Below are positions 17,794 through 38,145 of a stretch of DNA of 64,000 nt, in pieces. Origin of the DNA: Desulfobacterales bacterium (lineage in GTDB: Bacteria; Desulfobacterota; Desulfobacteria; Desulfobacterales; JAFDDL01). The notes under the pieces were generated by a model that was given only the letters and a program-made list of their open reading frames with translations, ran no database searches and was not told where the DNA came from. Where the stretch lies: assembly GCA_963675725.2 (NCBI GenBank), contig CAXXXZ010000002.1, positions 4,143,979 through 4,207,978 on the forward strand, written 5' to 3'. The position numbers and the translations under genes are program-made. Numbering within the stretch: the first letter of the stretch is position 1; each line of letters starts with the position of its first letter.

Positions 17794-19407
17794 ATGCAGT
17801 TTCCCTGGGCCTTGGCGGCTCGCCCCTTGCATCTCAAGCACAACCGTATTATAGTAAAGGAACCTATCTTGGAGAACAGGCATCCATCCGACGAATTGGG
17901 TAAGAAAATAGAGCGAGATAAGCAAATGGTAAAAGCATTTATGGAAATTTTTAATTCCTTCCTGGGTTCAGTTCGAGAACCTTTAGTGGTGCTTGACGCC
18001 GATCTGCACGTTGTAAAGGCTAATCCTTCTTTTTACCAGACTTTCAACGTCCGGCCGGAGGAAACGGAAGGAATTTTAATATACGATCTTGGCAACCGGC
18101 AATGGAACATTCCCAAATTAAAAGAATTGCTTGAAAACATTCTCCCACAGAATACCATATTCAATGACTTTGAGGTGGAACATAATTTTGAGACCATCGG
18201 TCGAAAAATAATGCATCTGAATGCCCGGCGGATCTACACGGAGGAAAACAAAACCCGGCTGATTCTGTTGGCCATCGAGGATGTGACCGATGGAGAATAT
18301 TATAAAAGACATCTTGAGGAAACGGTTGAAAAACGAACGGCCGAACTAAAATCGGCATTGGAAGAGGCGGAAAAGAGCAAACATTTTGCTGAAACAGCCC
18401 TTTTTGAAACAGAGAAATTAAAAGAACAACTCGATGCTGAGAGAAAGTACCTTCAGGATGAAATAAAACTGGAATACAACCACGAGAACATTATCGGCCA
18501 AAGTGATGAAATCAATTATGTATTCTATAAGATTGAGCAAATTGCCGCTGCAGATACTACCGTACTAGTGCTGGGCGAGACCGGAACCGGCAAAGAGCTG
18601 GTCGCCAGAGCGATTCACGGACTGAGCCTGCGTAAGGATCGCGCACTGGTCAAAATGAATTGTGCGGCACTCCCGTCAACTCTAATTGAAAGCGAACTCT
18701 TCGGCCACGAAAAAGGTGCTTTCACCGGGGCTCAGGCCAGACGGTTGGGACGATTTGAAATTGCCGATGGTGCCTCTCTGTTTCTGGATGAGATCGGCGA
18801 ACTTCCTATTGAATTGCAACCCAAGCTGCTCCAGGTGATACAGAACGGTGAGTTTGAACGTTTGGGAAGCTCCCAAACGATCAAGGTCGATGTTCGAATT
18901 ATCGCCGCCACCAATCGTAATTTGGAAGAGGAGGTCCGCAAGGGCCGATTTCGAGAGGATTTGTGGTACCGGCTGAATATTTTTCCAATCACCATGCCGC
19001 CGCTTCGGGATCGCCTGGACGACATTCCGCTGCTGGTTGATTTTTATGTTGATAAAATTTCAAAAAGGCTGGGAAAATCCATCGAGATGGTTCCGGTGGG
19101 TGTTATGGACGCGTTGCGGGACTATCCTTGGCCGGGTAACATTCGCGAACTGGAAAATGTCCTCGAACGTGCTGTGATCAGCTCATCCGGACCCAAACTT
19201 CGCCTGGTCGATGAACTGAAAAAGCCGCATAAGGATTTAATAAAATCCACTCACACCCTGGAGGATGTTGAGCGTGAATATATAACTCGCGTGCTGGAAC
19301 AGGTAAAATGGAAAGTGAGTGGTGACAACAGTGCCTCTGAAATCCTCGGCCTCGATCGGAGCACCTTGCGGGCCCGCATGCGTAAGCTCAATATTAAAAA
19401 ACCATAA
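17794..19407 (+). CDS. PAS-domain sigma54-dependent transcriptional activator (bacterial enhancer-binding protein)
   Basis: PAS N-terminus and a coiled-coil linker. AAA+ domain with GETGTGKE, the GAFTGA loop (EKGAFTGAQ) and FLDEIGE. Fis-type [22 protein letters not shown]. The true start may be ATG 17926. Confidence 0.92.
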
Positions 19408-19476: not shown

Positions 19477-19507
19477 GGTCATATCCGACCACTGGTAACA
19501 TATGGCC
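19477..19507. promoter_or_regulatory. palindromic upstream activator sequence (cassette copy 1)
   Basis: GGTCATAT-N15-ATATGGCC flanked by A5/T5. Centre lies about 117 bp upstream of the GG of the sigma54 promoter. Conserved in copies 2 and 3. Confidence 0.7.
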
Positions 19508-19607
19508 CTTTTTATAGGGCAATTCATGCTGCCATGCACAGGCGTTGCAATCTAATTATCATTAAATAACAGGATGTTGAGTGACGTGTTGCTGAATTTT
19601 AGAAACC

Positions 19608-19625
19608 CGGCACAAAGAATGCAAT
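19608..19625 (+). promoter_or_regulatory. sigma54 (-24/-12) promoter, cassette copy 1
   Basis: CCGGCACAAAGAATGCAA. GG (19609-10) and GC (19621-22) are separated by exactly 10 nt. The same 17-mer occurs at 26696 and 33046. Confidence 0.8.
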
Positions 19626-19697
19626 TATAAATAATGATCGCCCGGAAAAAGTATTTTGGAGGCTAAAAAAAATTACCCCAAAAAAGGAAAACCTGTC

Positions 19698-20480
19698 ATG
19701 GAAAAAAGAATGTATCGCTTGGCGCTGATGGCAATCGTGGTCTCGTTGTTTTTAACCAGCGTCCCTCTGTTTGCGTCCGACGTGGATGATAAAATCGAAT
19801 CATCCGCAAAACAGTCTTATGTATTTAAAACCTACCTCAAGGGCGATGACATTAAAATTCAGGCCAAGGATGGCGTTGTCACCCTGACCGGAACGGTTTC
19901 AGAAGACTCCCACAAATCATTGGCCCGGGAGACGGTTGCGAGCCTGCCCGGAGTGAAAAGCGTGGACAACAAGCTGGAAGTAAATGCCGAAGCCCCGCTC
20001 GCTCTCTCGGATGCATGGCTCATAACCAAAGTAAAATCCGCACTTTTGTTCCATCGGAACGTAAGCGCCACCGGAACAGAGGTTCTATCAAAAGAAGGGC
20101 TTGTCACCTTGCGCGGCGAAGCCTCCAGCGCGGCCCAAAAAGACCTGACGGCCGAATACGTCAAGGATGTGGAAGGCGTCAAAGACGTTAAGAATGAGAT
20201 GACTCTATCAGCTGCCGCCATGAAGCCTGGTGAAAAAACGATGGGCGAAAAAATAGACACCATAGGCGAATTGATTGATGATGCGTCCATCACCGCCATG
20301 GTCAAGATGACGTTGCTGTATCATCGTTCGACCAGCGCTCTTAACACCACTGTCGAGACGACAGAAGGCGTGGTCAATTTGGGGGGCAATGCCAAAAACA
20401 TGGCCGAAAAGGACCTGGCCACCAAACTCGTTAGCGATGTTCACGGCGTAAAAAGCGTCGTCAACAACATGACCGTATAG
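19698..20480 (+). CDS. periplasmic triple-BON-domain protein (OsmY-like)
   Basis: Signal peptide LALMAIVVSLFLTSVPLFA. Three BON repeats (each ...GVVTLTG/LRG...LPGVKSV.N.L style). Confidence 0.85.
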   Translation: MEKRMYRLALMAIVVSLFLTSVPLFASDVDDKIESSAKQSYVFKTYLKGDDIKIQAKDGVVTLTGTVSEDSHKSLARETVASLPGVKSVDNKLEVNAEAPLALSDAWLITKVKSALLFHRNVSATGTEVLSKEGLVTLRGEASSAAQKDLTAEYVKDVEGVKDVKNEMTLSAAAMKPGEKTMGEKIDTIGELIDDASITAMVKMTLLYHRSTSALNTTVETTEGVVNLGGNAKNMAEKDLATKLVSDVHGVKSVVNNMTV

Positions 20481-20488
20481 GGAACCCG

Positions 20489-20671
20489 ATGATATCTTCG
20501 CCTTGTAGAAACTGCGATAAGCGTCATGTGCCCAAAAACATGTGCATGAAAGAGTGCGAGAAAATCGCGGCGATTCAACACTTTCAAACTACCGTAGGCA
20601 TACCGCCATTTGTGCGAAACGACAGCTCAGATACATTACCGGCCGTCCTGAGAGCGGTTGTCTCAAAATGA
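20489..20671 (+). CDS. hypothetical small Cys-rich protein
   Basis: 60-aa ORF starting 9 nt after the BON stop. CxxC...CxxxC pattern (SPCRNCDKRHVPKNMCMKEC). No family recognised. Confidence 0.3.
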   Translation: MISSPCRNCDKRHVPKNMCMKECEKIAAIQHFQTTVGIPPFVRNDSSDTLPAVLRAVVSK

Positions 20672-20787
20672 TGGCCACGTGCTGGGTGGACGGGCGGCGT
20701 TTCAAGCCGTTTGGATTGAAGGAACTGCGCGCCATGCGCCAGCTTTTTCTTTTCCGGGATCAACGAGGTGCCTCCCAAAATGGTTAA

Positions 20788-20912
20788 ATATGACCCTTTC
20801 CCGATGGAGATTAACAGTGGTCTTTAAATGTTTGTTTAGCAAATTACGTTTAAATATCAGAAATTTTGGTATCGTTACAGTGAATGTGTGGTACCTGGCA
20901 CAAATATTGAGT
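20788..20912 (+). promoter_or_regulatory. degenerate fourth copy of the UAS/sigma54 cassette
   Basis: Right UAS half ATATGACCC (20788-96), shared spacer TTTAAATATCAG, then TGGCACAAATATTGAG, where the -12 reads TTGA instead of TTGC. Spacing is the same as in copies 1-3. Confidence 0.45.
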
Positions 20913-21159
20913 ATTCAGTTATTAAAAGATGTCGGCACCACGATTTCCGATAGCGTTACTTTTCATATTCCGATACGCGATGACGTTTATCATGATTCGC
21001 TGCCGACCGAGGTATCTCCGCCGCCTGACGTTCGCGTTGGACCGACAATCGCGTCGTCAATCTTCAAACGGTGGAGAATTAAGATAAATTCCGGAAAAAG
21101 CCTCACCGATCTTTTGCACGGGAACTTCAGTACAAACATTATTCAACAGGAGGTCTACC

Positions 21160-21339
21160 ATGAAATCGAGCACCCAAGACAACGCAGAAGGTAAGTGGCA
21201 CAAGATGAAGGGTAAAATCAAGCAGGTCGTCGGAAAAGCAGTCGGGAACCGCGATTTGGAAGCCGAAGGCAAGGCCGAAAATGTTGATGGTAAGGTTCAA
21301 GAAAAGATCGGCGAGATCAAGGACGTCGTTGGGAAGTAA
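21160..21339 (+). CDS. CsbD-family general stress protein (not in supplied ORF track, 59 aa)
   Basis: MKSSTQDNAEGKWHKMKGKIKQVVGKAVGNRDLEAEGKAENVDGKVQEKIGEIKDVVGK. AGGAGG RBS. Confidence 0.85.
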   Translation: MKSSTQDNAEGKWHKMKGKIKQVVGKAVGNRDLEAEGKAENVDGKVQEKIGEIKDVVGK

Positions 21340-21388
21340 ACATAGACACCAGTCAAAAGAATCTGATGGCGTAATAAAGGAGGCCACC

Positions 21389-21538
21389 ATGCTTTGGACT
21401 ATATTTGTGATTCTACTGGTTTTGTGGGCGCTTGGGTTACTAACCGGATACACGATGGGCGGCATCATCCATGCCCTGCTGGTCATCGCCATTGTTGTGA
21501 TACTGATTCAAGTGTTTCAAGGACGAAGACGGGTTTAA
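21389..21538 (+). CDS. lmo0937-family small membrane protein
   Basis: MLWTIFVILLVLWALGLLTGYTMGGIIHALLVIAIVVILIQVFQGRRRV. AGGAGG RBS. A paralog lies at 31573. Confidence 0.8.
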   Translation: MLWTIFVILLVLWALGLLTGYTMGGIIHALLVIAIVVILIQVFQGRRRV

Positions 21539-21593
21539 CCCGTCTTACCATCACCAGAAAAGGTGAGGTATTAACTTAAAAGGAGTTGTTGCC

Positions 21594-21908
21594 ATGGAAA
21601 CAAGACGTTGGGCTGTCGCCTGTTTTGCTCTAATTATGTTTAGCGCCGCATATGTGGCCTTCGCATCCACATCCAAACAGGAAAGTATGGGGGAATACGT
21701 TGACGATTCGGTCATCACGGCCAAGGTCAAATCAATGCTGGCCGCAGATGATTTTCTCAAGTCATTTCAGATTGGTGTTGAAACCTACAAGGGCATCGTT
21801 CAACTGAGCGGCTTCGTTAATTCTCAAGAAGCGATCGATAATGCGGTCGAAATAACTCGCGACGTCAAGGGGGTCAAATCCGTCAAGAATGATCTGGTCG
21901 TGAAATAG
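21594..21908 (+). CDS. secreted single-BON-domain protein
   Basis: Signal peptide, then DDSVITAKVKSML...GIVQLSGFV...VKGVKSVKNDLVV. Confidence 0.85.
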   Translation: METRRWAVACFALIMFSAAYVAFASTSKQESMGEYVDDSVITAKVKSMLAADDFLKSFQIGVETYKGIVQLSGFVNSQEAIDNAVEITRDVKGVKSVKNDLVVK

Positions 21909-22187
21909 GCGGTTGTTATTTTCTCCCGGATGAAGCCGGGCGAGCACTGTTGATCCGAAACAGGGATTGACGATGTCGCGAGGGCGCTATGCACGGACAC
22001 CACGACCCGCGGCGTATACGAGTTTTCACGCGATAAGCTGCAGGCAGCGCACGCGCCTTGAATAAACTCGACCGGATTTCGTGCGTCCATTTCACCAATC
22101 CGGAGGTGCTTGCCAGTCTTCGTTTCGAGATCGATCGGGATGACGCCGTCACGGTTTTTGTGAGGCAAGAGCCATAGGAGCTGAAAC

Positions 22188-23627
22188 ATGATTCTCCGTA
22201 AGAAAAAGGTTCTGTTCATAACAACAGGCGTGATCACGCTTGTCGTCATAGCGACCATCCTCGCTCTTCTGCTGAGTATACAAGCCTTTAAACCGAAGAT
22301 CGAGGCAGCCGCGTCTACTGCTCTGGGGATGGATGTCCGGATAAAAGGCAGGATGGCCATCGCTTTTTATCCGGGCTTCGGTCTTTCGCTGAAGGAAGTC
22401 AACGTGCGGGACAGTGGACTGGATGTCGTTACGATTGGGGAGGTGAGGATAGGGCTGAAGCTCCTTGCCCTTGCGAGGTTCGAAATCAAGATAATCCAAG
22501 TCGAGCTTGTTAGGCCGGTCTTTTCCATCGTTCGGTCCAAAAACGGGATGTTCAATTTTGAAAAACCAGGACGCACGTCATGGGAAAAGCTTTTTACCAT
22601 GAAAAAGATATCCGTCTCTCAGGGGAGCCTTGTTTATATTGATGAAACATCCAGCGAAAAGATCGAAGTCGATGACTTGGATGCGAGCATAAGAAACCTT
22701 TTTTTCAGCGGGACGGACGACTCGGAACCATTCAAGAACATCTCATTTACTGGGGATACCAGATGCAAGACACTCAAGACCCATAATTTTACCCTGATGA
22801 ACCTCGTGATGAACGCCATAGGTGAAAAAGGAATATTCGATATCAATCCGGTCAGTATGAACATCTTCGGTGGAACGGGGAACGGAAGCCTTCATGTGGA
22901 CGTTACGGGACCATCGCCTCATTACAGGGCAATCTATACTCTTGATCGGGCCAGAATCGAAGAACTTCTTCAGCAATACTCGTTCAAGCATTCCCCCCAG
23001 AAGACCATAGAAGGGCCGATCAACTTTTCCGCGGATCTGACGGCAATAGGGAAGACTGCAGATGCAGTGAAGCGATCGCTTAACGGCGACCTTTCTTTGA
23101 ATGGACAGAACCTGATGCTTTACAACATCGATATCGATGCGCTTATCATGAAGTACGAACGAAGCCAAAACTTTAACCTCATGGATGTGGGGGCGATTTT
23201 GATCGCGGGGCCTTTCGGGCCATTACTTACCAAGAGCTACCATTTTACAAGCCTGTACGAAGAGTCGCAGGGCGGAAAAGGGATCATCAGAAAACTCGTC
23301 TCAGTGTGGGAGGTACAAAACGGCTTTGCCGAGGCGCGCGATGTAGCCATTTCCTCAACAAAGCAGAGGATCGCCATAAAAGGGGGATTGAACTTCATAA
23401 ACGAGCGGTTTGTCGACGTAACCGTAGCTGCCATCGATAAACGAGGGTGCGCCGTTTACAGCGAGAATGTGCACGGGTCCTTCCGTAAACCGCAGATTGA
23501 GAAGGAAAGTATCTTTAAGTCAATTGCCGGATCCGTATTGAATCCGCTGGAGGATGCGTGGGAATTCATTCAGGGCGAAGAGTGCACGGTATTTTACTCA
23601 GGTTCCGTAGCGCACCCGGAGGGTTAA
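22188..23627 (+). CDS. AsmA-family outer-membrane biogenesis protein
   Basis: N-terminal anchor VLFITTGVITLVVIATILALL, followed by a long beta-rich body. AsmA-like N-terminal and C-terminal segments recognised by eye. Confidence 0.65.
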   Translation: MILRKKKVLFITTGVITLVVIATILALLLSIQAFKPKIEAAASTALGMDVRIKGRMAIAFYPGFGLSLKEVNVRDSGLDVVTIGEVRIGLKLLALARFEIKIIQVELVRPVFSIVRSKNGMFNFEKPGRTSWEKLFTMKKISVSQGSLVYIDETSSEKIEVDDLDASIRNLFFSGTDDSEPFKNISFTGDTRCKTLKTHNFTLMNLVMNAIGEKGIFDINPVSMNIFGGTGNGSLHVDVTGPSPHYRAIYTLDRARIEELLQQYSFKHSPQKTIEGPINFSADLTAIGKTADAVKRSLNGDLSLNGQNLMLYNIDIDALIMKYERSQNFNLMDVGAILIAGPFGPLLTKSYHFTSLYEESQGGKGIIRKLVSVWEVQNGFAEARDVAISSTKQRIAIKGGLNFINERFVDVTVAAIDKRGCAVYSENVHGSFRKPQIEKESIFKSIAGSVLNPLEDAWEFIQGEECTVFYSGSVAHPEG

Positions 23628-23991
23628 CACAGAGTTTAAAAGTGTGTATCTATTTGAGTTAGGAAGGAGGGGGCGAGATGACTGTAGCATAGATGTGCCA
23701 CGGAGGTTTTTTTACCCTTGCAAAAGCTCAATTTCACAATTAAAGCGCTTCCGGACAGTGGCTGGAGGATAGTGTTTTGTAATCTCCAGTTTCTATTCAA
23801 TTGTGGACTGACGAATAAGGCTGCGGAATGCGTTGTCGCCGATAGGATCGAGGCCAAGGCAAATCAGGTTCTCAAGACGTTAAAAATCAAATTGAAGCAG
23901 AGAGAACCTCTTGACCATCTTGTAATCAAATCGCAAGGAGTCGGCGGAATATCGATTACGCTCCCGGGCTCACAGGAGAAAGGATTCGATT

Positions 23992-25455
23992 GTGGCTAAA
24001 CAGGCAACCGAACTGAGGTATGCTGTCCGATTTCGTGTGGTCTTCAAATATTTCGGTCAACTATGCCTCGTGCTCGCCGCGCTGTCGCTGGTGCCGTTGG
24101 CGATGTCGCTGATCTTTGGCGACACTCCCATCAGCCTGCGGTATGGCATTGTGATCGGTGGGCTTGCAGCCTCTGGGTTCGGTTTGGCGCGACTGCGCGC
24201 CCCTTCCAGGGTGCAGGCCAATGAAGGCATGGTGTTGGTCGCGCTGATGTTTTTATTCACTCCGCTCGTAATGTCCTACCCGATGATGGGCTCGGGGTTA
24301 GGGTTTCTGGATGCTGTCTTCGAAGCCATCTCCGGCGTGACGACGACGGGTCTGAGTACGAAGGCGACGCTCGTTGGCGCGTCGCAGACGTTCCTTTTTG
24401 CCCGCGCCTGGATGCAATGGTACGGTGGGCTGGGCGTCGTCGTACTTTCACTGGCGCTCATTATGCAACCGGGTCTGGTTGCAAAGGGCCTGGCCGTCAC
24501 AGAGACCGAAACTGACGATTTGGTCGGTGGCACGCGTGCACACGCGCGACGAGCCATGAAAGTCTATGGTGTTTTGACCGCCCTGGGCATCATCGGTTCC
24601 TTGGCGTTGGGAGTCGGGTTTTTCGACGCGGTGTTGTATACATTTGCGGCGGTCTCGACCGGAGGCTTTGCCCCGTATGACGGCAGCCTCGCGACGTTCG
24701 GCTGGCCGGCACAGGTGTGGATTACCCTGCTGTGCCTCGCCGGTGCGATTCCGCTGGCGTTCTATTACCGAATGTTAAAGGAAAAGCGGCGCGTTGCAGT
24801 GGACTTTCTGCAACTCCTGGCCGTCATAATCGCTGCCCTGGTCGTTTCGCTGGCGGTGGGCGCCGCCATGCGGCTGAGCGCCGGTATGGCTTGGTCGCAG
24901 GTACTCCGCCACGCGCCTTTGCTCGCCCTTTCCGCGCAGACAACCGCGGGATTTTCCTCGATGCCGTGTGCGCAGCTCGATGCGGGATCGAAACTGGTCC
25001 TGATATTCTCGATGCTTGTGGGCGGAGGCGCAGGGTCGACCGCGGGCGGATTCAAGCTGTTGCGGCTGTTGATCGCGTTAAGTGTGTTTCGGTTGATCCT
25101 CCTGCGGACCTGCCTGCCGAAACATGCCGTCATCGAACCCCGGCTGGCAGGCCGCCGACTGATGGCTGACGAGATCCACGCGGCCCTTCTGCTCATCGTG
25201 CTATTCGTCGCCGTCGTCACGTTGTCCTGGCTGCCCTTTGTTGTAATGGGATACAGCCCGATCGACTCCTTGTTTGAAGTGGTTTCGGCGACTGGAACGG
25301 CAGGGCTTTCGGTTGGGTTGACGAGTGCAACATTGCCCGCACTGCTTAAGGGTGTTTTGTGTTTTGACATGCTGATGGGAAGACTTGAAATAATGGCGTG
25401 GTTTGTGCTGCTGTACCCTGGAACCTGGTTTGGCAGGAGAATGGAGGGAACATGA
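23992..25455 (+). CDS. trkH: TrkH/KtrB-family potassium uptake membrane subunit
   Basis: Repeated pore-loop motifs (SGVTTTGLS, AVSTGGFAP, AQTTAGFSS, SATGTAGLS). GTG start. Visibly higher G+C than the neighbouring genes. Confidence 0.88.
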   Translation: MAKQATELRYAVRFRVVFKYFGQLCLVLAALSLVPLAMSLIFGDTPISLRYGIVIGGLAASGFGLARLRAPSRVQANEGMVLVALMFLFTPLVMSYPMMGSGLGFLDAVFEAISGVTTTGLSTKATLVGASQTFLFARAWMQWYGGLGVVVLSLALIMQPGLVAKGLAVTETETDDLVGGTRAHARRAMKVYGVLTALGIIGSLALGVGFFDAVLYTFAAVSTGGFAPYDGSLATFGWPAQVWITLLCLAGAIPLAFYYRMLKEKRRVAVDFLQLLAVIIAALVVSLAVGAAMRLSAGMAWSQVLRHAPLLALSAQTTAGFSSMPCAQLDAGSKLVLIFSMLVGGGAGSTAGGFKLLRLLIALSVFRLILLRTCLPKHAVIEPRLAGRRLMADEIHAALLLIVLFVAVVTLSWLPFVVMGYSPIDSLFEVVSATGTAGLSVGLTSATLPALLKGVLCFDMLMGRLEIMAWFVLLYPGTWFGRRMEGT

Positions 25456-26153
25456 GAACTGTGTTTATTGGAGCTGGCGAAGTCGGCATCGAAACCGCTA
25501 AGGCGCTCGTCAAAAAGGGCCACGAAGTCATCATCATCGAGTCCGACAAGGCCAAGATCGACGAATTGTCTGAAGAGATGGACTGTAGCTTCCTGCAAGG
25601 CGATGGCAGCCGGCCCGACATCCTGCGCGAGGTGAATCCCGAACAGACCGACATCTTGTTCTGCTTGACCGATAGCGACCAAGCCAATGTCATTGCCAGC
25701 CTCGTCGGCCGCTCCCTCGGATTCAAGCGCGTCGTGACGAGCATTCGCGATGAGCAATTCGAGGTCATCTGCCACGAGTTGGGGTTGAAGGACACGATCA
25801 TCCCATCCCGCACGATCAGTCGTTACCTAGAAGACATGGTCGGCGGCAGTAAAAACGTCGAGTTGTCCACGGTTCTCAAAGACGAGGCTCGGTTTTTCAC
25901 GTTCGCCGCTAAGGAAGAAGATGCTATCGTCGTTAAAGAGCTAAAGCTGCCTGCGGATGCCCGCGTCGTTTGCTATTATCGGGAGGACAAGTTCGCGCAT
26001 GCCGATGAGGAGACCACGCTGCACGCAGGTGATGAGATCGTGATTCTGACACACAGCAAGAACTTGGGCGAATTGGAAAAACGTTGGCAGCCAAAGCAAC
26101 GGGAGGAGAAGCCTTCGGATTCGGTCGACAGCAAGAAGAGCAACCAGAAGTGA
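25452..26153 (+). CDS. trkA: TrkA/KtrA-type potassium uptake regulatory subunit (single RCK unit)
   Basis: Rossmann fold VFIGAGEVGIETAKALVKKGHEVIIIESD, then a TrkA-C domain. ATGA overlap with trkH. Confidence 0.88.
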   Translation: MRTVFIGAGEVGIETAKALVKKGHEVIIIESDKAKIDELSEEMDCSFLQGDGSRPDILREVNPEQTDILFCLTDSDQANVIASLVGRSLGFKRVVTSIRDEQFEVICHELGLKDTIIPSRTISRYLEDMVGGSKNVELSTVLKDEARFFTFAAKEEDAIVVKELKLPADARVVCYYREDKFAHADEETTLHAGDEIVILTHSKNLGELEKRWQPKQREEKPSDSVDSKKSNQK

Positions 26154-26292
26154 CCGGTCAACATGGTAGGCGAAACCATTTTTATTGTGCTGTTCGTTGT
26201 GGCCACAGCTGCTGTGATTGCAGTGCAACGTTTGGCCGCGTCGCAAGTAATCAGCGATGATTGAACTCACGCTGATCACGATTACCGCTTAA

Positions 26293-26367
26293 ACCACGGC
26301 GGCCATGAGTCTCAGTTCCGTTTCTGTTATCGGCAATGCTATTCGGTTGTGCAAAGTAAAGATTTGA
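26293..26367 (+). pseudogene. 3'-terminal remnant of a heavy-metal P-type ATPase gene
   Basis: Translates to AAMSLSSVSVIGNAIRLCKVKI*, the conserved last TM/tail of CopA-type ATPases. An in-frame stop lies immediately upstream. Confidence 0.65.
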
Positions 26368-26403
26368 TGCGTTTTCAGGTACTTAAAGGCTATATTTCTT
26401 GCA

Positions 26404-26497
26404 AGTGAGCGGCGAAAACAGTGCCTCTGAAATCCTCGGCCTCGACCGCAGCACCTTGCGCGCCCGCATGCGTAAGCTCAATATCTCAAAACCATAA
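26404..26497 (+). pseudogene. 3' remnant (HTH) of a second copy of the sigma54 activator gene
   Basis: Near-identical at the nucleotide level to 19318-19407 (cagtgcctctgaaatcctcggcctcga..gcaccttgcg.gcccgcatgcgtaagctcaatat). No upstream AAA+ region. Confidence 0.85.
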
Positions 26498-26562
26498 ATT
26501 CTCACCCCAAATTCAATCTGTCTCGATAATTTGCCGTCCATAACATCAAGACGATCTGAAAA

Positions 26563-26595
26563 GGGTCATATTTAACCGCTGGTACAATATGACCC
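26563..26595. promoter_or_regulatory. palindromic upstream activator sequence (cassette copy 2)
   Basis: Perfect GGGTCATAT-N15-ATATGACCC. Confidence 0.7.
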
Positions 26596-26695
26596 TTTTC
26601 ATATGGCTGTTCATGACTGTCATTTACAGGCGGTGCAACCTAATTTTTCTTAAATATCAGGAGGATGAGTGACGCGGCACTGAATTTTATAAACC

Positions 26696-26713
26696 CGGCA
26701 CAAAGAATGCACT
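26696..26713 (+). promoter_or_regulatory. sigma54 (-24/-12) promoter, cassette copy 2
   Basis: CCGGCACAAAGAATGCAC with GG-N10-GC spacing, 118 bp downstream of the UAS centre. Confidence 0.8.
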
Positions 26714-26832
26714 TAAATAGCAGATAATGACCTGAAAAGAAGCAACATGTTTCGATACCGAAGCGTTTGCCATGAAAAACAAACGAAACGCATGCGAAGA
26801 AAAACTCGATGGATAGTCAAAGGAGGCATGTC

Positions 26833-27081
26833 ATGCAGAATAAAACTGAATTATGCGAAAAGATCAAAGCCATCTATCCGGATGTCGGAGAATGCGGCGT
26901 TGATATTACGGTTGACTATGATGAGACCAAGAAGGCTTGGATTGTCGATCTCAAAAAGGGCGAACACCGGCTTAAAACTTACCTGGAACCCGCAGATGCC
27001 GACCTGTGTATGGCCGGCAAGCAATGTGTAGGCCTGGGGATTCAAATCGCACAACTCAGATCTAATATCGAGCAAATGTAG
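26833..27081 (+). CDS. small acidic 4-Cys protein of unknown function
   Basis: 82 aa. AGGAGG lies 6 nt upstream of ATG 26833. Preferred over the overlapping basic 26747 frame on composition and RBS spacing. Confidence 0.6.
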   Translation: MQNKTELCEKIKAIYPDVGECGVDITVDYDETKKAWIVDLKKGEHRLKTYLEPADADLCMAGKQCVGLGIQIAQLRSNIEQM

Positions 27082-27186
27082 CCCTGTATCAGGTATAGCC
27101 GGAAGTCGACAGTCAGCAGTCGACAGCAGAAGATTGTATCCGATTTCGGATTCTATAGCCACCGGCACGGAAAGGAGCCTGCAGGA

Positions 27187-28665
27187 ATGAACATTCTCCT
27201 TATTTACCCAAAATTTCCGGATACTTTCTGGTCGTTTACCTATGCGTTAAGTTTTATTGGAAAGAAAGCGGCCTTCCCGCCGCTGGGCCTGCTTACCGTT
27301 GCGTCCCTGTTACCGGCTGTCTGGCCCAAACGCCTTGTGGACGTAAATATAGAAAGCCTTGCGGATAAAGACCTCTTGTGGGCGGATATGGCCTTAATCG
27401 GAGGCATGGCGGTTCAGCGAAAATCGGCAAAACAAATTATCGCCCGTTGTAATGCCTTGAATTTAAAAGTTGTTGCCGGAGGACCGCTTTTTACTTCCGA
27501 ACCCGATGAATTCAAAAACGTGAATCATCTCGTCCTCGACGAAGCGGAACTCACGTTACCTGCCTTTTTATCGGACCTGCAAAACGGACAGCCTAAAAAG
27601 ATCTACAGGGCTTCGGGTTTCTGCGATCTTGTCGACACGCCGAATCCGATGTGGGATCTGATAAAAATGAAACGATATGCGTCCCTGAACATTCAGTTTT
27701 CCAGAGGCTGCCCGTTCAACTGCGAATTTTGCAACGTGACGACGCTGTTCGGTCATCGGCCCCGTATAAAAACACCTCGGCAAATCATCACGGAACTGGA
27801 CCGTATTTATGCTTCCGGCTGGCGCGGCAGCATATTTTTTGTCGACGACAATTTTATTGGAAATAAGGGCACCCTTAAAACCCATTTACTTCCCGCCCTG
27901 ATCGAATGGCAAAAAAATAAAAAGGGCTGTGTTTTTTTCACGGAGGCCTCCATCAATCTGGCGGATGACCCGGAACTTTTGAATATGATGGTCACGGCCG
28001 GATTCGATTCCGTTTTTATCGGCATCGAGTCGCCCGATGAGTTGAGTCTCACGGAATGTCATAAAACCCAGAATAAAAACCGGGATTTGCTTGAAAGCGT
28101 CAGAATTATTCACCGTTCAGGGTTACAGGTGATGGGTGGTTTTATTGTGGGCTTTGACAGCGATCTGCCCTCAATTTTCCAGCGACAGATCGATTTCATT
28201 CAGAAGAGCGGTATCGTCACGGCAATGGTTGGAATGCTTCAAGCCCCTCCGGGAACCCGTCTCTTTGATCGGCTTCAACGGGAAAGCCGGGTGGTCAATA
28301 CCTTTACCGGAGATAACGTCGATGGAACGACCAATATTATTCCCCGGATGGGCATAGACAAGCTCATGGAAGGGTATCAATCGATTATGAAACAGATTTA
28401 TTCGCCAAAAAATTACTACCGGCGGGTCAGGACGTTATTGAAGGAACTAAAGGCGCCTGCAATTTACCAGCCGCTGAATATTCAGCGCTTCCTTTCCTTC
28501 TTCCGGTCCGCTCTCCGGCTCGGGGTTTTTGGGAAAGAGCGTTTTCGTTACTGGCAGCTGGTGCTCTGGACCCTAAGCTACAAGCCCAGACTGATGTCGG
28601 TGGCCATAACGCTATCCATATATGGTTATCATTACCGTAGAATATGCGAACGATATATTTATTGA
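27187..28665 (+). CDS. B12-binding radical SAM protein (class B, DUF4070-type C-terminus)
   Basis: N-terminal cobalamin-binding fold (MALIGGMAVQ). Cluster motif SRGCPFNCEFC (CxxxCxxC). Confidence 0.85.
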   Translation: MNILLIYPKFPDTFWSFTYALSFIGKKAAFPPLGLLTVASLLPAVWPKRLVDVNIESLADKDLLWADMALIGGMAVQRKSAKQIIARCNALNLKVVAGGPLFTSEPDEFKNVNHLVLDEAELTLPAFLSDLQNGQPKKIYRASGFCDLVDTPNPMWDLIKMKRYASLNIQFSRGCPFNCEFCNVTTLFGHRPRIKTPRQIITELDRIYASGWRGSIFFVDDNFIGNKGTLKTHLLPALIEWQKNKKGCVFFTEASINLADDPELLNMMVTAGFDSVFIGIESPDELSLTECHKTQNKNRDLLESVRIIHRSGLQVMGGFIVGFDSDLPSIFQRQIDFIQKSGIVTAMVGMLQAPPGTRLFDRLQRESRVVNTFTGDNVDGTTNIIPRMGIDKLMEGYQSIMKQIYSPKNYYRRVRTLLKELKAPAIYQPLNIQRFLSFFRSALRLGVFGKERFRYWQLVLWTLSYKPRLMSVAITLSIYGYHYRRICERYIY

Positions 28666-28868
28666 GACAAATTTTGATCTGTTTGATTTGCAGAAGAGGT
28701 GAGCTATTAACGAGGAAAAGTTATAAGAGCCAATTTCAAAACGCCCCCTTTTATCCAATTTCGGTGTCAGACGAAAATTATAATCCTCGGAATACGTTAT
28801 GTATGCCTGTGGTTATAATTTTTGACTTCCTTGAACTTGAATAAAATTGAACATTTTGAAACTGGCTC

Positions 28869-28991
28869 ATGAGTAAAGCAAATTTTATGGGGCGTTTTTT
28901 TATGGGGCTTTTTTTGTTTGCGTTCATCGCAGGCTGCGTCGGCCCACGTCATCAGGAACAATCTTACTTGGTTTTGCAACGAACCATTTGA
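28869..28991 (+). CDS. possible mini-lipoprotein (40 aa, not in ORF track)
   Basis: MSKANFMGRFFMGLFLFAFIAGC with a lipobox. No clear RBS. Confidence 0.25.
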   Translation: MSKANFMGRFFMGLFLFAFIAGCVGPRHQEQSYLVLQRTI

Positions 28992-29010
28992 TGAAAGGGA
29001 CAGAATCCCA

Positions 29011-29205
29011 ATGAATGAACTCTATGAATATCGAGAGAAACTTGAATTTCTGCTCGACAACTGGAACGCCGAGCTTGACAAATTGGAGGATAGTACCGGC
29101 AAGTCCGGCGCTGATCCTAAGGCCGATCACGACGGGATATTATCAGCGTTGCGGCAGAACCGTTATAATGAGATCCCATCTTTGAAAGTGAACAAGCAAA
29201 TATGA
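29011..29205 (+). CDS. coiled-coil protein, apparently a truncated paralog of 31762-32052
   Basis: LDNWNAELDKLE parallels MSEWDAQIDLLK of the 96-aa paralog. The 3' end merges into sequence also found upstream of the 33104 gene. Confidence 0.4.
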   Translation: MNELYEYREKLEFLLDNWNAELDKLEDSTGKSGADPKADHDGILSALRQNRYNEIPSLKVNKQI

Positions 29206-29218
29206 AAGGAAAAGGACC

Positions 29219-29410
29219 ATGCCGCTGATTCATTTAGTAATTACTTTGGTTGTGGTTGGGGTGATTCTTTGGCTGATTAACAGCTACATACCCATGCAGG
29301 CTACCATAAAGAAAATTTTGAATGCCGTAGTGGTTATTGTGGTGGTTCTCTGGCTATTGAGCGTCTTCGGACTCATCGGCCCCATTCAAGGGTTTCGTAT
29401 CGGGAGGTGA
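29219..29410 (+). CDS. Thivi_2564-family small membrane protein
   Basis: MPLIHLVITLVVVGVILWLINSYIPMQATIKKILNAVVVIVVVLWLLSVFGLIGP. A close paralog lies at 33104. Confidence 0.8.
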   Translation: MPLIHLVITLVVVGVILWLINSYIPMQATIKKILNAVVVIVVVLWLLSVFGLIGPIQGFRIGR

Positions 29411-29542
29411 AGAACAGGAAATTTATTCGATACACCGAACAGAAGAAAAACATTCATTTCAAATGTCGCGGGCATCATATTGTCCAATTCAACAAGGCCT
29501 TTTTACAGGCGAGAACATATAAAAACTCAAAGAGTGGAGGGA

Positions 29543-29929
29543 ATGATGAAGACTGGAATTAAAATACAATTCTGTATTCTTGGCTTGGCCTTGCTGACCT
29601 TGACGGCTTGCGGCACAGCCAAGCAACCGCCATTGAGCCAGATGGCTTTGGCTCAGTCAGCCGTGGAAAAAGCTGCATCCGCCGGATCCGGTGAGTATGC
29701 TTCTTTGGACCTAAGGACGGCGCGGGACAAAATCGACCGGGCCAAAACAGCTATACAGTCCAAAGACAAAAACTATTTAACGGCAGAGCGTCTATTGGAA
29801 GAGGCGAAAGTAGATGCGGAGCTGGCGGAAGCCAAATCTAAAACGGCAAAATCCCAAAAAATCGTGGCTGAGCTGAAAGAAAGCATTGATATGCTGAGAG
29901 ACGAAATTCAACGGAACCGTACCCAATAA
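29543..29929 (+). CDS. DUF4398-type lipoprotein
   Basis: Lipobox LTLTAC, then an Ala/Lys/Glu-rich helical body. Paired with a downstream OmpA-family gene, as is typical. Confidence 0.7.
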   Translation: MMKTGIKIQFCILGLALLTLTACGTAKQPPLSQMALAQSAVEKAASAGSGEYASLDLRTARDKIDRAKTAIQSKDKNYLTAERLLEEAKVDAELAEAKSKTAKSQKIVAELKESIDMLRDEIQRNRTQ

Positions 29930-29959
29930 TTGCCGTAAAACAACAATCAGGAGGCGATC

Positions 29960-30940
29960 ATGTCTATATTAATCAGCAAATTCAATGCATTTATCCTCAT
30001 ATCAGGAATTGCGTTGGTGGCCCCGGCGCTTTCAGGATGTGCGCATACCATGAGGACCAATGCCGCTTTGGAAGAAGCCCAGGCCGTCTATCGGACAGCT
30101 CAGGAAAACCCGGATGTTGCCCGAAATGCTTCTCTGGAACTTAAAAAAGCCGAAACGGCACTGAACAAGGCGGAGCAATTGTTACAGCAAAAAGGCGAAA
30201 CGGATGCAATTGAACACCAGGCTTACCTGGCCAAACAGCATGCCTATATATCCGAGGAAATCGGTAAGCAGAAAATGGCAGAGGCGGCGTTAGAGCAGGC
30301 TGGCGCCGAGCGCAACAAAGTTATTCTAGAGGCTCGTACAAAGGAAGCAAAGCTTGCCGAGCGGAACGCTTCTGCTGAAAAAGCAGCCGCACTGAAAGCC
30401 ATGGAAGATGCCAAAGCGCAGAAAGCCGCCGCATTAAACGCCATGGAGGAAGCGGAAGTGCAAAAAGCCGCCGCCGAATCAGCCATGGCGGAAGCAGCAG
30501 CGGCAAACGATAAATCTTTAAAGCTCGAACAGGAGATCGCGAAACTGAAGGCAATAAAGGCGGACCGAGGTCTGGTCATAACCCTTGGAGATGTCGTCTT
30601 CGACGTGAACAAGTCTGACCTGAAGACGGGAGGCGTCTCGGCCGTTGGGAAAATAGTTGCATTCCTTAAGGAATATCCAACCCGGGGTGTAATGATTGAA
30701 GGATTCACGGATAGTACCGGGGAGTTGGAGTACAACCAGGCTTTGTCTGAAAGGCGTGCGCTTGCGGTACGCCGGGTCTTCCAAACCAACGGCATCGAAT
30801 CTGCTCGCACTGATTTTATAGGTTACGGGGAAGATTTCCCGGTAGCAACCAATGAGACGGCGGCAGGCCGCCAGATGAACCGTAGGGTCGAGATCATTAT
30901 TTCCGATGAAGCGGGAGTCATACCTGTACGTGTGAAATAG
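29960..30940 (+). CDS. OmpA-family lipoprotein with DUF4398-like N-terminus and Ala-rich repeat linker
   Basis: Lipobox LSGC. Repeats AAALKAMEDAKAQKAAALNAMEEAEVQKAAAESAMAEAAAA. OmpA_C motifs GFTDSTG...NQALSERRA...NRRVEI. Confidence 0.88.
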   Translation: MSILISKFNAFILISGIALVAPALSGCAHTMRTNAALEEAQAVYRTAQENPDVARNASLELKKAETALNKAEQLLQQKGETDAIEHQAYLAKQHAYISEEIGKQKMAEAALEQAGAERNKVILEARTKEAKLAERNASAEKAAALKAMEDAKAQKAAALNAMEEAEVQKAAAESAMAEAAAANDKSLKLEQEIAKLKAIKADRGLVITLGDVVFDVNKSDLKTGGVSAVGKIVAFLKEYPTRGVMIEGFTDSTGELEYNQALSERRALAVRRVFQTNGIESARTDFIGYGEDFPVATNETAAGRQMNRRVEIIISDEAGVIPVRVK

Positions 30941-31015
30941 AAAAAAGCGTTTAGAACATCCTATGGCAGGGAATCTTAATTCAAATACCAAAATTGACAA
31001 AGAAATGGAGAAATC

Positions 31016-31225
31016 ATGATTCTTAAAAAATTATTAACAATTATGGCCTTAATTCTATCCATGTTTGCATTTACCGCCTGTGAATCGAAAGGGCCTGTAG
31101 AAAGAGCCGGTGAAAAAATCGACCAGGCTGTTCAAAAAACCACTGAAAAAGCAAAAGAAGTAACCGAAGCCGTAAAGGAAAAAGCCGAAGAAGCCGGGGA
31201 AGAGGTAAAAAAGGCAACTCAGTAA
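31016..31225 (+). CDS. small Lys/Glu-rich lipoprotein
   Basis: Lipobox FTAC, followed by KEVTEAVKEKAEEAGEEVKKATQ. Confidence 0.65.
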   Translation: MILKKLLTIMALILSMFAFTACESKGPVERAGEKIDQAVQKTTEKAKEVTEAVKEKAEEAGEEVKKATQ

Positions 31226-31299
31226 ACCCCAACGTTGAAAGTCCGGGGGTATTTAAACTAAACCTCCCATCAGCTAAAAAAGCATTTTCGGAGCAGTCA

Positions 31300-31552
31300 T
31301 CGGCAGTCTGTAAATATGTACTCTATAAGATTGAGCAAATCGCCGGCACGGATACCAATGCTTTGGTTCTCGGCGAGACCGGAACCGGCAAAGAGCTGGT
31401 GCGCGAGCCATTCACGGTTTGAGCCTGCGTAAGGACCGCGAACTGGAAAATGTCAACGGGCTGTGATCAGCTCATCCGGACCCAAACTTCGCCTGGTGGA
31501 TGAACTGAATAAGCCGCACAAGGATTTAATAAAGTCTACTCATATCATCTAA
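31300..31552 (+). pseudogene. internally deleted, frameshifted remnant of a third sigma54 activator copy
   Basis: 31316-31446 aligns to the Walker-A region of the intact gene (about 18518-18645). The alignment then jumps to about 19148-19260 (gaactggaaaatgtc...). There is also a 1-nt indel in gctggtgcgcgagccattcacgg. Confidence 0.85.
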
Positions 31553-31572
31553 CAAATTGAAAGGAGAATCCA

Positions 31573-31722
31573 ATGTTGTGGACGATTGCCGTCATACTGG
31601 GAATTCTGTGGCTGTTCGGATTCGTGAGCAGCTACACGATGGGAGGGTTCATTCATATCCTGCTGGTGATTGCCGTTATCGTGGTGCTGATCAATATCAT
31701 CCAGGGCCGGAGAATCAGTTAA
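31573..31722 (+). CDS. lmo0937-family small membrane protein (49 aa, not in ORF track)
   Basis: MLWTIAVILGILWLFGFVSSYTMGGFIHILLVIAVIVVLINIIQGRRIS. AAGGAG RBS. Replaces the out-of-frame track ORF 31557-31751. Confidence 0.8.
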   Translation: MLWTIAVILGILWLFGFVSSYTMGGFIHILLVIAVIVVLINIIQGRRIS

Positions 31723-31761
31723 TCATCAGTAACGTATCAACTCAACCATGAGGAGTTTATT

Positions 31762-32052
31762 GTGAACGAAAAACGAAAAGCCTATGAAGAGAAAATCGAC
31801 GCGCAGATGTCAGAATGGGACGCGCAGATCGATCTGCTGAAGGCCAAGGCGGACAAAGCCAAGGCACAGACGAAGATCGAATACTACAAAACCATCGAAG
31901 CATTGCAGCGCAAGAAAAATGGGGCGGGAACAAAACTACACGAGCTGAAGACTGCAGGAGATGAAGCGTGGGAAGACCTTAAAACAGGCGCTGAAAAGGC
32001 CTGGGATGACGTGAAGACAGCCTTACACAGTGCGACCTCAAAGTTCAAATGA
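31762..32052 (+). CDS. coiled-coil small protein of unknown function
   Basis: 96 aa. GTG start behind GAGGAG. Helical K/A/E-rich sequence. Confidence 0.6.
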   Translation: MNEKRKAYEEKIDAQMSEWDAQIDLLKAKADKAKAQTKIEYYKTIEALQRKKNGAGTKLHELKTAGDEAWEDLKTGAEKAWDDVKTALHSATSKFK

Positions 32053-32145
32053 GTTCAAAGGCCGGACTCACAGGCATGACATTTATGACCCCTGTTGGTG
32101 AAAAAAGAAGACGGTCGATTCCGTAAAATTATCCGCCGTCAACGG

Positions 32146-32246
32146 GTGATCTGGACCCTAAGCGACAAGCCCAGGCTGAAGTAACCGAAGCCGTAAAGGA
32201 AAAAGCCGAAGAAGCCGGGAAAGAGGTAAAAAAGGCAACCGAGTAA
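32146..32246 (+). pseudogene. deletion-junction remnant: radical-SAM 3' fragment fused to lipoprotein 3' fragment
   Basis: 32146-32179 matches 28562-28596 (ctggaccctaagc.acaagccca..ctga). 32178-32246 matches 31159-31225 (gaagtaaccgaagccgtaaaggaaaaagccgaagaagccggg.aagaggtaaaaaaggcaac..agtaa). Confidence 0.8.
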
Positions 32247-32358
32247 AGCATGAAAAAAGTGAATATTGTGTACCACACTCCGGCAGATAAAGGTGCTGCC
32301 GGCAAAGAATTTTAGGGCACCTCGCGATTATCAGAAAAGCGACAGTAAGGGGAAATAT

Positions 32359-32760
32359 ATGAAAACAACCATGGGGCTGTGGATAGATCATCGCAAAGCG
32401 GTGATTGTGTCAGTTTCGGGCAAAGGGGAGGAAATCAGCGTTATCGAATCAAGGGCAGAAAAGCAGCCCGGAAGGTTTGACGGGGTACGTTCGACTACCC
32501 CCTATGAAGCTCAGAAGGTTTCAGCGGATGGCAGGCAGGATAGAAAATTTGCCGATCAACTCAACATCTACTACGATGAGGTCATTTCGGTTCTTCGTGA
32601 CGCCGAATCCATTTTTCTTTTTGGTCCTGGAGAGGCAAAGGGCGAGCTGAAAAAACGTCTAGAAGATGACCATCTCGCTCACCGCATCCAAGCTGTGGAA
32701 ACAGTTGATCAGATGACGGATCGCCAGATTGCAGCGAAGGTCCGGGAGTATTTTCACTGA
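32359..32760 (+). CDS. hypothetical protein, possibly eRF1/Pelota-like (host-attachment/baeRF-type) fold
   Basis: 133 aa. IFLFGPGEAKGELKKRL resembles the GPG..K central motif of eRF1-domain proteins. This is a weak, memory-based call. Confidence 0.45.
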   Translation: MKTTMGLWIDHRKAVIVSVSGKGEEISVIESRAEKQPGRFDGVRSTTPYEAQKVSADGRQDRKFADQLNIYYDEVISVLRDAESIFLFGPGEAKGELKKRLEDDHLAHRIQAVETVDQMTDRQIAAKVREYFH

Positions 32761-32901
32761 TCGATCAGCAGCATCGCCGTAATCATACTTACTATCATCA
32801 TTGTATAGGCCAATTGCCCGAAGGAGGAATTTTTTATTTAGATTAAAGTGCAACGGACTGCCCCCTAAAGACCGCCGGTTATGAAACGCCATTAGAGCGA
32901 A

Positions 32902-32932
32902 GGTCATACTTGACCACTGGTACAATATGACC
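32902..32932. promoter_or_regulatory. palindromic upstream activator sequence (cassette copy 3)
   Basis: GGTCATAC-N15-ATATGACC. Confidence 0.65.
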
Positions 32933-33045
32933 TTTTAACGGTGTTTATTTTGTGATTGCCCATGAGGGCCCGGCAAGTGCTTAGTTAGGCAAATTATTCT
33001 TAAATATCAGGATAATGGATGGTGTGCCGCTGAGTATCAGGAACC

Positions 33046-33063
33046 CGGCACAAAGAATGCATT
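33046..33063 (+). promoter_or_regulatory. sigma54 (-24/-12) promoter, cassette copy 3
   Basis: CCGGCACAAAGAATGCAT with GG-N10-GC spacing. Confidence 0.8.
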
Positions 33064-33103: not shown

Positions 33104-33301
33104 ATGACGATGCCGTTGATTAATTTAGTGATTACTTTGGTTGTGGTAGGAGTGATTCTTTGGCTGATTAACAACTATATACCCATGCAGGTTACTATAA
33201 AGAAAATTTTGAATGCCGTAGTGGTTATTGTTGTGGTTCTCTGGTTGTTGAGTGCCTTCGGGCTCATAGGGCCTATCTCTGGATTTCGTCTTAAGATGTG
33301 A
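33104..33301 (+). CDS. Thivi_2564-family small membrane protein (paralog of 29219)
   Basis: MTMPLINLVITLVVVGVILWLINNYIPMQVTIKKILNAVVVIVVVLWLLSAFGLIGP. The start may be ATG 33110. Confidence 0.8.
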   Translation: MTMPLINLVITLVVVGVILWLINNYIPMQVTIKKILNAVVVIVVVLWLLSAFGLIGPISGFRLKM

Positions 33302-33361
33302 AGTCTTCGAAAGTAAAGAAAAGGGATTTCAAATTTGATGGTCTCGTAAAAAGTCAATATA

Positions 33362-34166: not shown

Positions 34167-34231
34167 AGAACACCGAATGTAAGACTCAGCATTTTAACAG
34201 CTACTTTTTATTGCACAGGGAGGATTCAGGT

Positions 34232-38131: not shown

Positions 38132-38145
38132 CAAAAGGATCCGCC

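Follow-up and report, generated by a model that had tools for sequence, protein, structure and literature searches.

A 64,000-nucleotide (nt) stretch of the genome of a Desulfobacterales bacterium (contig CAXXXZ010000002.1; hereafter the window) contains a repeated regulatory cassette and, next to its first copy, the gene for a PAS-domain activator of sigma-54 RNA polymerase. Each full cassette is composed of a palindromic upstream activating sequence (UAS), an A/T-rich block resembling a binding site of integration host factor (IHF), plus a sigma-54-type promoter with -24 and -12 elements. Three full cassettes and a reduced one, numbered copy 4, lie where an earlier note on this DNA had placed them, and their frequency is far above chance. 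All genes relevant to the cassettes are on the + strand. A GAF-EI (PtsP-like) gene and an MFS transporter gene are located upstream of the activator gene. Sequence comparisons make it very likely that the cassettes are enhancer-promoter units of a single sigma-54 regulon of stress-type genes, controlled by the PAS activator, and probably so in many sulfate-reducing Desulfobacterota. Coordinates are listed in the table; L numbers denote related loci from other genomes.

Table. Cassettes, activator sequences and adjoining genes in the window
Feature	Position	Strand	Details
Sigma-54 activator (bacterial enhancer-binding protein, bEBP)	17926-19407	+	PAS, AAA+, HTH_8; Pfam, motifs
UAS 1	19477-19507		two 14-bp palindromes: GGTCATATCCGACC (19477-19490), GGTAACATATGGCC (19494-19507)
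IHF-like core 1	19567-19579	+	TAACAGGATGTTG; begins 42 nt before GG
Promoter 1, sigma-54-type	19608-19623	+	CGGCACAAAGAATGCA; GG 19609-10, GC 19621-22; UAS gap 101 nt
Copy 1 target, triple-BON, OsmY-like	19698-20480	+	Pfam BON 5.8e-46; NCBIfam OsmY-like similarity
Copy 4 UAS, single 14-bp palindrome	20782-20795		GGTTAAATATGACC; alignment with L092 and L068
IHF-like core 4	20855-20867	+	TATCAGAAATTTT; begins 42 nt before GG
Promoter 4	20896-20911	+	TGGCACAAATATTGAG; GG 20897-98, -12 TTGA; 101 nt after 14-mer
Copy 4 gene, CsbD-like	21160-21339	+	
Copy 4 gene, lmo0937-family membrane protein	21389-21538	+	
Copy 4 gene, single-BON	21594-21908	+	
Activator remnant A	26402-26497	+	final 31 codons and stop; tblastn 90.6% identity
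UAS 2	26564-26594		GGTCATATTTAACC-GCT-GGTACAATATGACC
IHF-like core 2	26655-26667	+	TATCAGGAGGATG; begins 42 nt before GG
Promoter 2	26696-26711	+	GG 26697-98, GC 26709-10; UAS gap 102 nt
Copy 2 genes	26809-28665	+	90-amino-acid protein without family match, then B12-binding radical-SAM/DUF4070 (27187-28665)
Activator remnant B	31312-31564	+	amino acids ~242-289 joined to ~457-494; tblastn
UAS 3	32902-32932		GGTCATACTTGACC-ACT-GGTACAATATGACC
IHF-like core 3	33005-33017	+	TATCAGGATAATG; begins 42 nt before GG
Promoter 3	33046-33061	+	GG 33047-48, GC 33059-60; UAS gap 114 nt
Copy 3 genes	33104-34942	+	Thivi_2564-family membrane, CBS-domain and OmpA-domain proteins
Fifth, promoter-only copy	34959-34974	+	TGGCATGAAGTTTGAG; before KH (35018-35293) and ABM (35320-35673)

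The promoter 17-mer CCGGCACAAAGAATGCA has exactly three perfect matches in the window, each on the + strand (19607, 26695 and 33045). Chance would yield 0.30 matches when up to 3 mismatches are tolerated, and 3 or more were found in 0 of 100 shuffles. The outer arms of the UAS, GGTCATAT-N15-ATATGACC, are found at 19477 (1 mismatch), 26564 (no mismatch) and 32902 (1 mismatch), against a chance expectation of 0.17. The exact GG-N10-GC spacing that the earlier note reported for copies 1-3 is present in the raw sequence. So is the position of the UAS upstream of the promoter, with its center 117, 118 and 130 nt from the GG in copies 1, 2 and 3, respectively. Compared to the sigma-54 consensus TGGCAC-N5-TTGCW, copies 1-3 read cGGCAC-AAAGA-aTGCA with exact spacing. 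In copy 4 and in a fifth promoter the equivalent sequence is TGGCAC/T-N5-TTGA, in which GA replaces GC at -12. The promoters are co-oriented with the genes that follow, and the predicted 5' leaders measure about 33-90 nt in copies 1-3 and about 240 nt in copy 4.

The A/T block, described earlier for copies 1-3, is common to copies 1-4. The description of the full cassettes as near-identical was too strong: identity between copies 1 and 2 is 80% over 316 nt, and the similarity of copy 3 to the others is restricted to the UAS and to ~78 nt that surround the promoter and the A/T block. Copy 3 also contains ~12 additional nt between UAS 3 and the IHF-like block. Its resulting gap of 114 nt fits the 113-nt class of the family described below. 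The window was scanned for promoter plus UAS at 19/28 or better, for single 14-mers differing at no more than 3 positions, and for every GGCAY-N6-TG site. These scans found no cassette in the window other than copies 1-4 and the promoter at 34960. Matches resembling the 14-mer at 1142, 13522 and 32077 were rejected, there being no promoter at the correct distance. No Rfam family matched between 17000 and 36000 of the window.

The anatomy of the UAS is revealed by related sites. GTDB genomes were scanned with only the outer arms fixed, which returned at least 120 loci, and the loci fetched for comparison have no more than ~87% nucleotide identity to the window. About 90 of the listed sites belong to Desulfobacterales, Desulfobulbales or ‘delta’ metagenome-assembled genomes (MAGs), and in these the free inner positions read ATGACC-N3-GGTYAW. 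About 30 belong to unrelated taxa (Collinsella, Bacillus, Ruminococcus and others); with random inner positions, they serve as an internal control. Among the matches listed, a GGCAY-N6-TG sequence accompanies 70 of 92 motif-fitting sites at a distance of 85-125 nt, compared to 1 of 30 non-fitting sites, almost all of which belong to the unrelated taxa. Most of the apparent misses have GG-N10-GC variants (GGCGC, GGTAC and others) at the canonical spot. Because the inner positions are conserved in the Desulfobacterota sites, the UAS is composed of two tandem 14-bp palindromes, and not of one palindrome split by N15 as the earlier note had it. The consensus of the 14-mer is GGTCATATATGACC. Its two copies are centered 17 bp apart and are separated by a 3 bp spacer, occasionally 4.

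Spacing statistics were obtained from 117 pooled cassettes. The end of the proximal 14-mer lies 100-103 nt from the GG in 92 of them. Minor clusters are found at 92-93, 113 and 123 nt, in steps of ~10-11 nt, a pattern suggestive of helical phasing. At -12, the tetramer reads TTGA in 54 cassettes, TTGC in 33, TTGG in 9 and GTGC in 9. The layout expected of an enhancer, with inverted repeats ~80-150 bp upstream of the promoter in conserved phasing, is present, and an open reading frame (ORF) starts within 400 nt downstream in 68 of 80 related cassettes. Taken across more than 100 cassettes of other genomes, the UAS, the IHF-like block and the promoter are locked in position relative to each other.

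Variant -24 elements (GGCGC, GGTAC, GGAAC, GGCTC and GGGCG) are found at the canonical distance in L012, L013, L019, L049, L072, L096, L105 and L115. These cassettes are mostly from Desulfobulbales, which indicates that the ‘CAC’ of the -24 element is not strictly retained in the putative regulon. In L030, L037, L094, L055, L114 and L123, a single double-palindrome UAS is flanked on either side by sigma-54-type promoters at the canonical distances, and it appears to drive divergent operons.

The A/T block had been suggested to be an IHF bending site. In all four copies in the window, the distance from the start of a WATCAR-type core to the GG of the -24 element is exactly 42 nt, and in 57 of the 117 pooled cassettes it is 41-42 nt. 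Compared to the IHF consensus WATCAANNNNTTR, copies 2-4 match the WATCAR arm exactly (TATCAG), and copy 1 reads TAACAG. The TTR arm is matched in copy 1 only (TTG), the other copies having ATG or TTT; the A/T-rich 5' block is present. As an IHF site the block is no more than consensus-like: the WATCAR arm is conserved, but the other arm is mostly ATR.

Our analysis also revealed a close association between the cassette and the activator gene. An unbiased set of 80 metagenomic loci was picked by similarity to the activator protein alone, and 71 of these extend at least 330 nt downstream of the gene. A cassette, defined as one or two 14-mers plus GGCAY-N6-TG, directly follows the activator stop codon in 61 of the 71. 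In L001-L003, picked by protein identity, a palindrome is located just past the stop codon in each, and L002 and L003 contain additional copies. The window has the same arrangement. The activator stop codon (19405-19407) is 69 nt before UAS 1, and an activator remnant is 66 nt before UAS 2, in agreement with the earlier note. A nearby candidate cognate activator, as expected for an enhancer, is therefore found in the window, in L001-L003 and in the 61 metagenomic loci. All comparative tests, of spacing and of synteny alike, agree with a putative enhancer, IHF-like site and sigma-54 promoter served by the adjacent activator.

The ORF of the activator opens at 17794, and a 493-residue product is predicted from 17926; most homologues among the matches listed have 493-515 residues. 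Pfam analysis identified Sigma54_activat (PF00158, 7.9e-71) and HTH_8 (8.6e-09), in addition to the PAS domain and the AAA lid. The AAA+ domain contains the GAFTGA motif at residue 308, Walker A (GETGTGKE) and Walker B (DEIGE), and the helix-turn-helix (HTH) is C-terminal, an arrangement that defines bEBPs. The activator looks functional, because GAFTGA, Walker A and HTH_8 are all present. It does not belong to a named activator type in NCBIfam: all 25 equivalog models (NtrC, NifA, NorR, FhlA, PspF, ZraR, AtoC, PrpR and others) scored below cut-off, the best being FhlA with 394 bits against a cut-off of 830. Relatives in the PDB match only the AAA+/HTH part. The best 120 homologues among the matches listed are 77-87% identical. 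Few of these matches have named sources, which are MAGs labelled Desulfobacteraceae, Thermodesulfobacteriota and Acidobacteriota, and the relatives retrieved include MAGs labelled Desulfobacterales and Desulfobulbales.

The synteny favors binding of the palindrome by the adjacent PAS activator, which is probably its regulator. Alternatively, the cassette could be a true sigma-54 enhancer-promoter in which the 14-mers are bound by a different regulator, either another activator or a repressor. Desulfobacteria encode ~50-70 sigma-54 activators per genome, more than the other bacteria surveyed (PMC12316311), and under the strict definition 10 of the 71 activator loci lack a canonical adjacent cassette. 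Several of these ten have degenerate or displaced cassettes, however, and in Desulfovibrio an activator is, as a rule, encoded beside the promoter that it controls (PMC4641369, PMC8359166). Extreme conservation is also seen in the activator and its HTH among the matches listed, and likewise in the motif. Together with the cassettes that follow the gene in the other 61 loci, these observations make a different regulator unlikely.

We also considered that the palindrome is mainly an intrinsic, possibly bidirectional, terminator or an insulator hairpin for the upstream transcript, and that its adjacency to a promoter is incidental. The RNA of copies 1-3 is predicted to fold with energies of -15.9 to -25.3 kcal/mol (z-scores -2.9 to -6.1). 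Across the family the UAS is flanked by A-rich sequence upstream and T-rich sequence downstream, and in copies 1 and 2 the site is 66-70 nt past a stop codon. However, the base sequence itself, beyond the pairing, is conserved across orders, and the distance to the promoter is fixed within ~2 nt. In some relatives (L030, L037, L094, L055 and L114) the site lies between divergent promoters and appears to serve both. The stems are AT-rich, with T runs of 4-5 nt and a central region of 15 nt, and a terminator scan made no call at the hairpins on the + strand. Furthermore, copy 4 retains the promoter architecture without the hairpin (z = +0.4). A main role as terminator is thus very unlikely, and a secondary one is possible. 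That the cassettes are a selfish or structural repeat family (repetitive extragenic palindromic or miniature inverted-repeat transposable element type), as their palindromic, multi-copy and intergenic nature might suggest, is extremely improbable: every copy lies where the promoter of a co-oriented operon belongs, orthologous copies are found at equivalent places in other genomes, the sigma-54 and IHF-like elements inside the cassette are locked in position, and no target-site duplications or terminal repeats were seen apart from the UAS itself.

For an enhancer-promoter unit controlled by the PAS activator, the following mechanism is proposed. The activator would bind the two tandem 14-bp palindromes as two dimers. 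An IHF-like protein would bend the DNA at the WATCAR core, and the bend would deliver the oligomerized activator to the sigma-54 RNA polymerase that sits in a closed complex at GG-N10-GC (or GA). The promoter would then open as the activator hydrolyzes ATP, its ATPase being gated by the PAS domain in response to a signal. The operons driven in this way are predicted to encode stress and envelope proteins, in the window BON/OsmY, CsbD, lmo0937, radical-SAM, Thivi_2564, CBS and OmpA proteins, to which the operons of relatives would add ABM, KH, Band7, YtxH, YflT, DnaJ and FtsH. What the sequences compared here show is the conserved architecture, the activator synteny and the genes present; binding, bending, sigma-54 dependence and a stress signal are all predictions from them.

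Several observations weigh against this proposal. The match to the TTR arm of the IHF consensus is poor. The family most often has TTGA at -12 instead of the canonical TTGC. The link between activator and site is based on synteny, and another activator could use the site. The UAS and its A-rich and T-rich flanks fold into a strong RNA hairpin, which may have a terminator or insulator role. Finally, the extents of the operons and the label ‘stress’ derive from family names only.

Copy 4 was described in the earlier note as degenerate. Its alignment with the orthologous cassettes of L068 and of the Desulfosarcina MAG locus L092 shows that exactly 17 bp are missing from it, equivalent to the distal 14-mer and the 3-bp spacer. 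The remainder is retained, including the 101-nt spacing, and promoter 4 has the same sequence as that of the L068 cassette. This deletion is the only defect of copy 4; the TTGA at -12, which the earlier note pointed out, is the form most often seen in the family. The clean 17-bp deletion and the family norm of TTGA suggest that copy 4 is a putative one-dimer-site form of the cassette and not a dead copy. Between promoter 4 and the CsbD-like gene is an unusually long non-coding leader of ~240-245 nt (20915-21159). It was not retained as a candidate conserved RNA, being shared with L092 only (73% identity, with a 29-nt indel) and absent from L068; only its final ~54 nt are conserved more widely. 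The leader has no Rfam match.

The fifth copy consists of a promoter only. It follows the OmpA stop codon and precedes the KH-ABM genes; the 3' end of the OmpA gene abuts it and so separates it from any UAS or IHF-like block. It shares a 26-nt identity with the activator-adjacent ABM promoter in the closest relatives, L124 and L125, and this similarity ends ~6 nt upstream of the -24 element. It has neither a UAS nor an IHF-like block of its own. We interpret it as a cassette that lost its upstream site.

The two activator remnants point to the history of the cassettes. In remnant A, the changes relative to the intact gene fall 2/1/7 at codon positions 1/2/3, a pattern suggesting that most of its divergence took place while it was still coding, before the truncation. 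The possibility that it encodes a mini-HTH protein was rejected, as an in-frame stop lies directly upstream and 31 codons are left. Remnant A and cassette 2 are 75-86% identical to the orthologous activator-cassette junctions of other genomes, compared to 80% to copy 1. Being about equally close to foreign junctions and to copy 1, they suggest that the duplication is old. Remnant B, which is absent from the earlier note, has an internal deletion of roughly residues 289-457 and a premature stop, and is located 1.3 kb before UAS 3. Genes of the lmo0937 and sll1863 stress families and a 133-residue ORF without family match lie between it and copy 3.

Copies 2 and 3 would have arisen when the activator and the cassette downstream of it were duplicated, after which the surplus activator copies decayed. 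Because it contains two activator remnants, an old duplication and a fifth promoter without a UAS, the island is best described as a mosaic, formed by activator-plus-cassette duplication and by rearrangements at cassettes. In L003, a short 3' activator remnant at ~18640-18762, seen by eye only, directly precedes a second cassette ~7 kb downstream of the intact activator, and it suggests that such duplication recurs. At the threshold used, a tblastn search for activator remnants in other genomes matched only the remnant of the window. Other partial matches were cut by locus ends or covered only residues ~135-493, past the PAS domain. Regulon rewiring is illustrated by the pseudogene fragments of the activator and by the enhancer-less promoter.

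The genes following the cassettes are of similar types in the window and in relatives. Among the matches listed, the ORFs after 80 GTDB cassettes encode BON (18), ABM (13), radical-SAM/B12/DUF4070 (5), OmpA (5), VWA (5), KH (4), Band7 (3) and YflT (3) proteins, in addition to DnaJ, CsbD, YtxH, FtsH, PLD and CreA. In the unbiased set, ABM is the commonest first gene after activator-adjacent cassettes (32 of 90 ORFs), followed by Band7 and radical-SAM/DUF4070. The target families in relatives are the families found in the window. In L009, the radical-SAM gene of copy 2 is located downstream of an activator-adjacent cassette. Several MAGs have 2-4 exact-match sites each among the matches listed, and the regulon probably comprises of the order of ten operons per genome.

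The effector families overlap those of the sigma-B and sigma-S regulons. The overlap with sigma-B of Bacillus and sigma-S of E. coli includes CsbD, YtxH, YflT, the lmo0937 family, OsmY/BON, Hsp20 and sll1863-type proteins. Those systems use a dedicated stress sigma factor, whereas here sigma-54, one ATP-dependent activator and an enhancer are proposed. Taking these features together, we tentatively raise the possibility, which we favor somewhat less than its opposite, that the activator is a master regulator of general stress or dormancy in these sulfate reducers. It would control several and possibly ten or more operons per genome from rigid enhancer/IHF/promoter cassettes whose -12 is the non-canonical TTGA, in a regulon that grows and is reshuffled as the activator-plus-cassette module duplicates and recombines, with BON/OsmY, CsbD, YtxH, YflT, lmo0937, sll1863, ABM, Band7, FtsH and DnaJ as effectors. 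If true, this would be a third regulatory logic for the bacterial general stress response.

The cassette resembles well-studied enhancers. In the NtrC-glnAp2, NorR-norVW and PspF-pspA systems of Enterobacteria, a -24/-12 promoter is preceded by multiple dimer sites at a distance of ~100-150 bp. The oligomer is assembled on the tandem sites, and norV and pspA make use of IHF-assisted looping. The cassettes are similar to these systems in having predicted tandem dimer sites upstream of such a promoter. Unlike them, the sites here are two 14-bp palindromes 17 bp apart, center to center, so that both site sequence and spacing differ. The targets of those systems are nitrogen, nitric oxide and phage-shock genes, compared to general-stress-type proteins here. 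For NorR, the comparison draws on PMC2831303.

The closest characterized system in the phylum is OrpR-orp of Desulfovibrio vulgaris Hildenborough (PMC8359166). OrpR and the window activator share the one-component PAS/AAA+/HTH layout, and both genes adjoin their targets, which in the window are predicted ones. The orp system also has a palindromic enhancer, IHF, sigma-54 promoters and one enhancer region for divergent operons. In contrast, the OrpR motif is GGGCGYRTTTTGCGCCC, compared to GGTCATATATGACC here, and the OrpR PAS domain has a [4Fe-4S] cluster on three conserved cysteines, whereas that of the window activator contains no cysteine (PMC8359166). The OrpR regulon consists of two operons, compared to several sites per genome among the matches listed here, and its target genes differ from those of the cassettes.

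The literature searched contained no description of the motif, of the activator subfamily or of a BON/CsbD/ABM-type sigma-54 regulon, and the motif was not found in the D. vulgaris sigma-54 regulome paper. The proposed mechanism is textbook sigma-54, enhancer and IHF; the regulator, motif and regulon appear to be undescribed. To our knowledge, almost no sigma-54 activator of the Desulfobacteria has a known function. One such activator can now be assigned a predicted motif, spacing rules at the base-pair level, a coherent predicted regulon and a wide taxonomic range. Whether environmentally dominant sulfate reducers mount a general stress response via sigma-54 becomes a testable question. The TTGA -12 element and the double palindrome with 17-bp spacing provide natural material for studying enhancer geometry and the effect of the -12 element on sigma-54 promoter output.

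Additional genes lie further down the candidate operons. The single-BON gene of copy 4 is followed by AsmA, TrkH and TrkA genes. After the radical-SAM gene of copy 2 are two genes for DUF4398 proteins, one with an additional OmpA domain. The AsmA-TrkHA and DUF4398/OmpA genes are possibly also in the regulon. KH, ABM and glycosyltransferase genes follow the OmpA gene of copy 3.

The window as a whole looks like a stress-gene island. Its first part (1-17618) contains co-directional stress-type genes, with no recognizable cassette within this stretch of the window. The genes encode FtsH (cut by the window start), DnaG-like Toprim, PLD-family, Hsp20, ACS-GNAT, aldehyde dehydrogenase, DnaJ-like and Cpn60 proteins, all within the first 13 kb, in addition to the GAF-EI protein and MFS transporter mentioned above. 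Homologues of several of these adjoin cassettes elsewhere (L003, L123, L053, L069 and L008). On the other side, two GT4 glycosyltransferase genes and two GH130 phosphorylase-like genes follow KH-ABM at 35825-41686, and this cluster could be a compatible-solute or glycan pathway of the same island.

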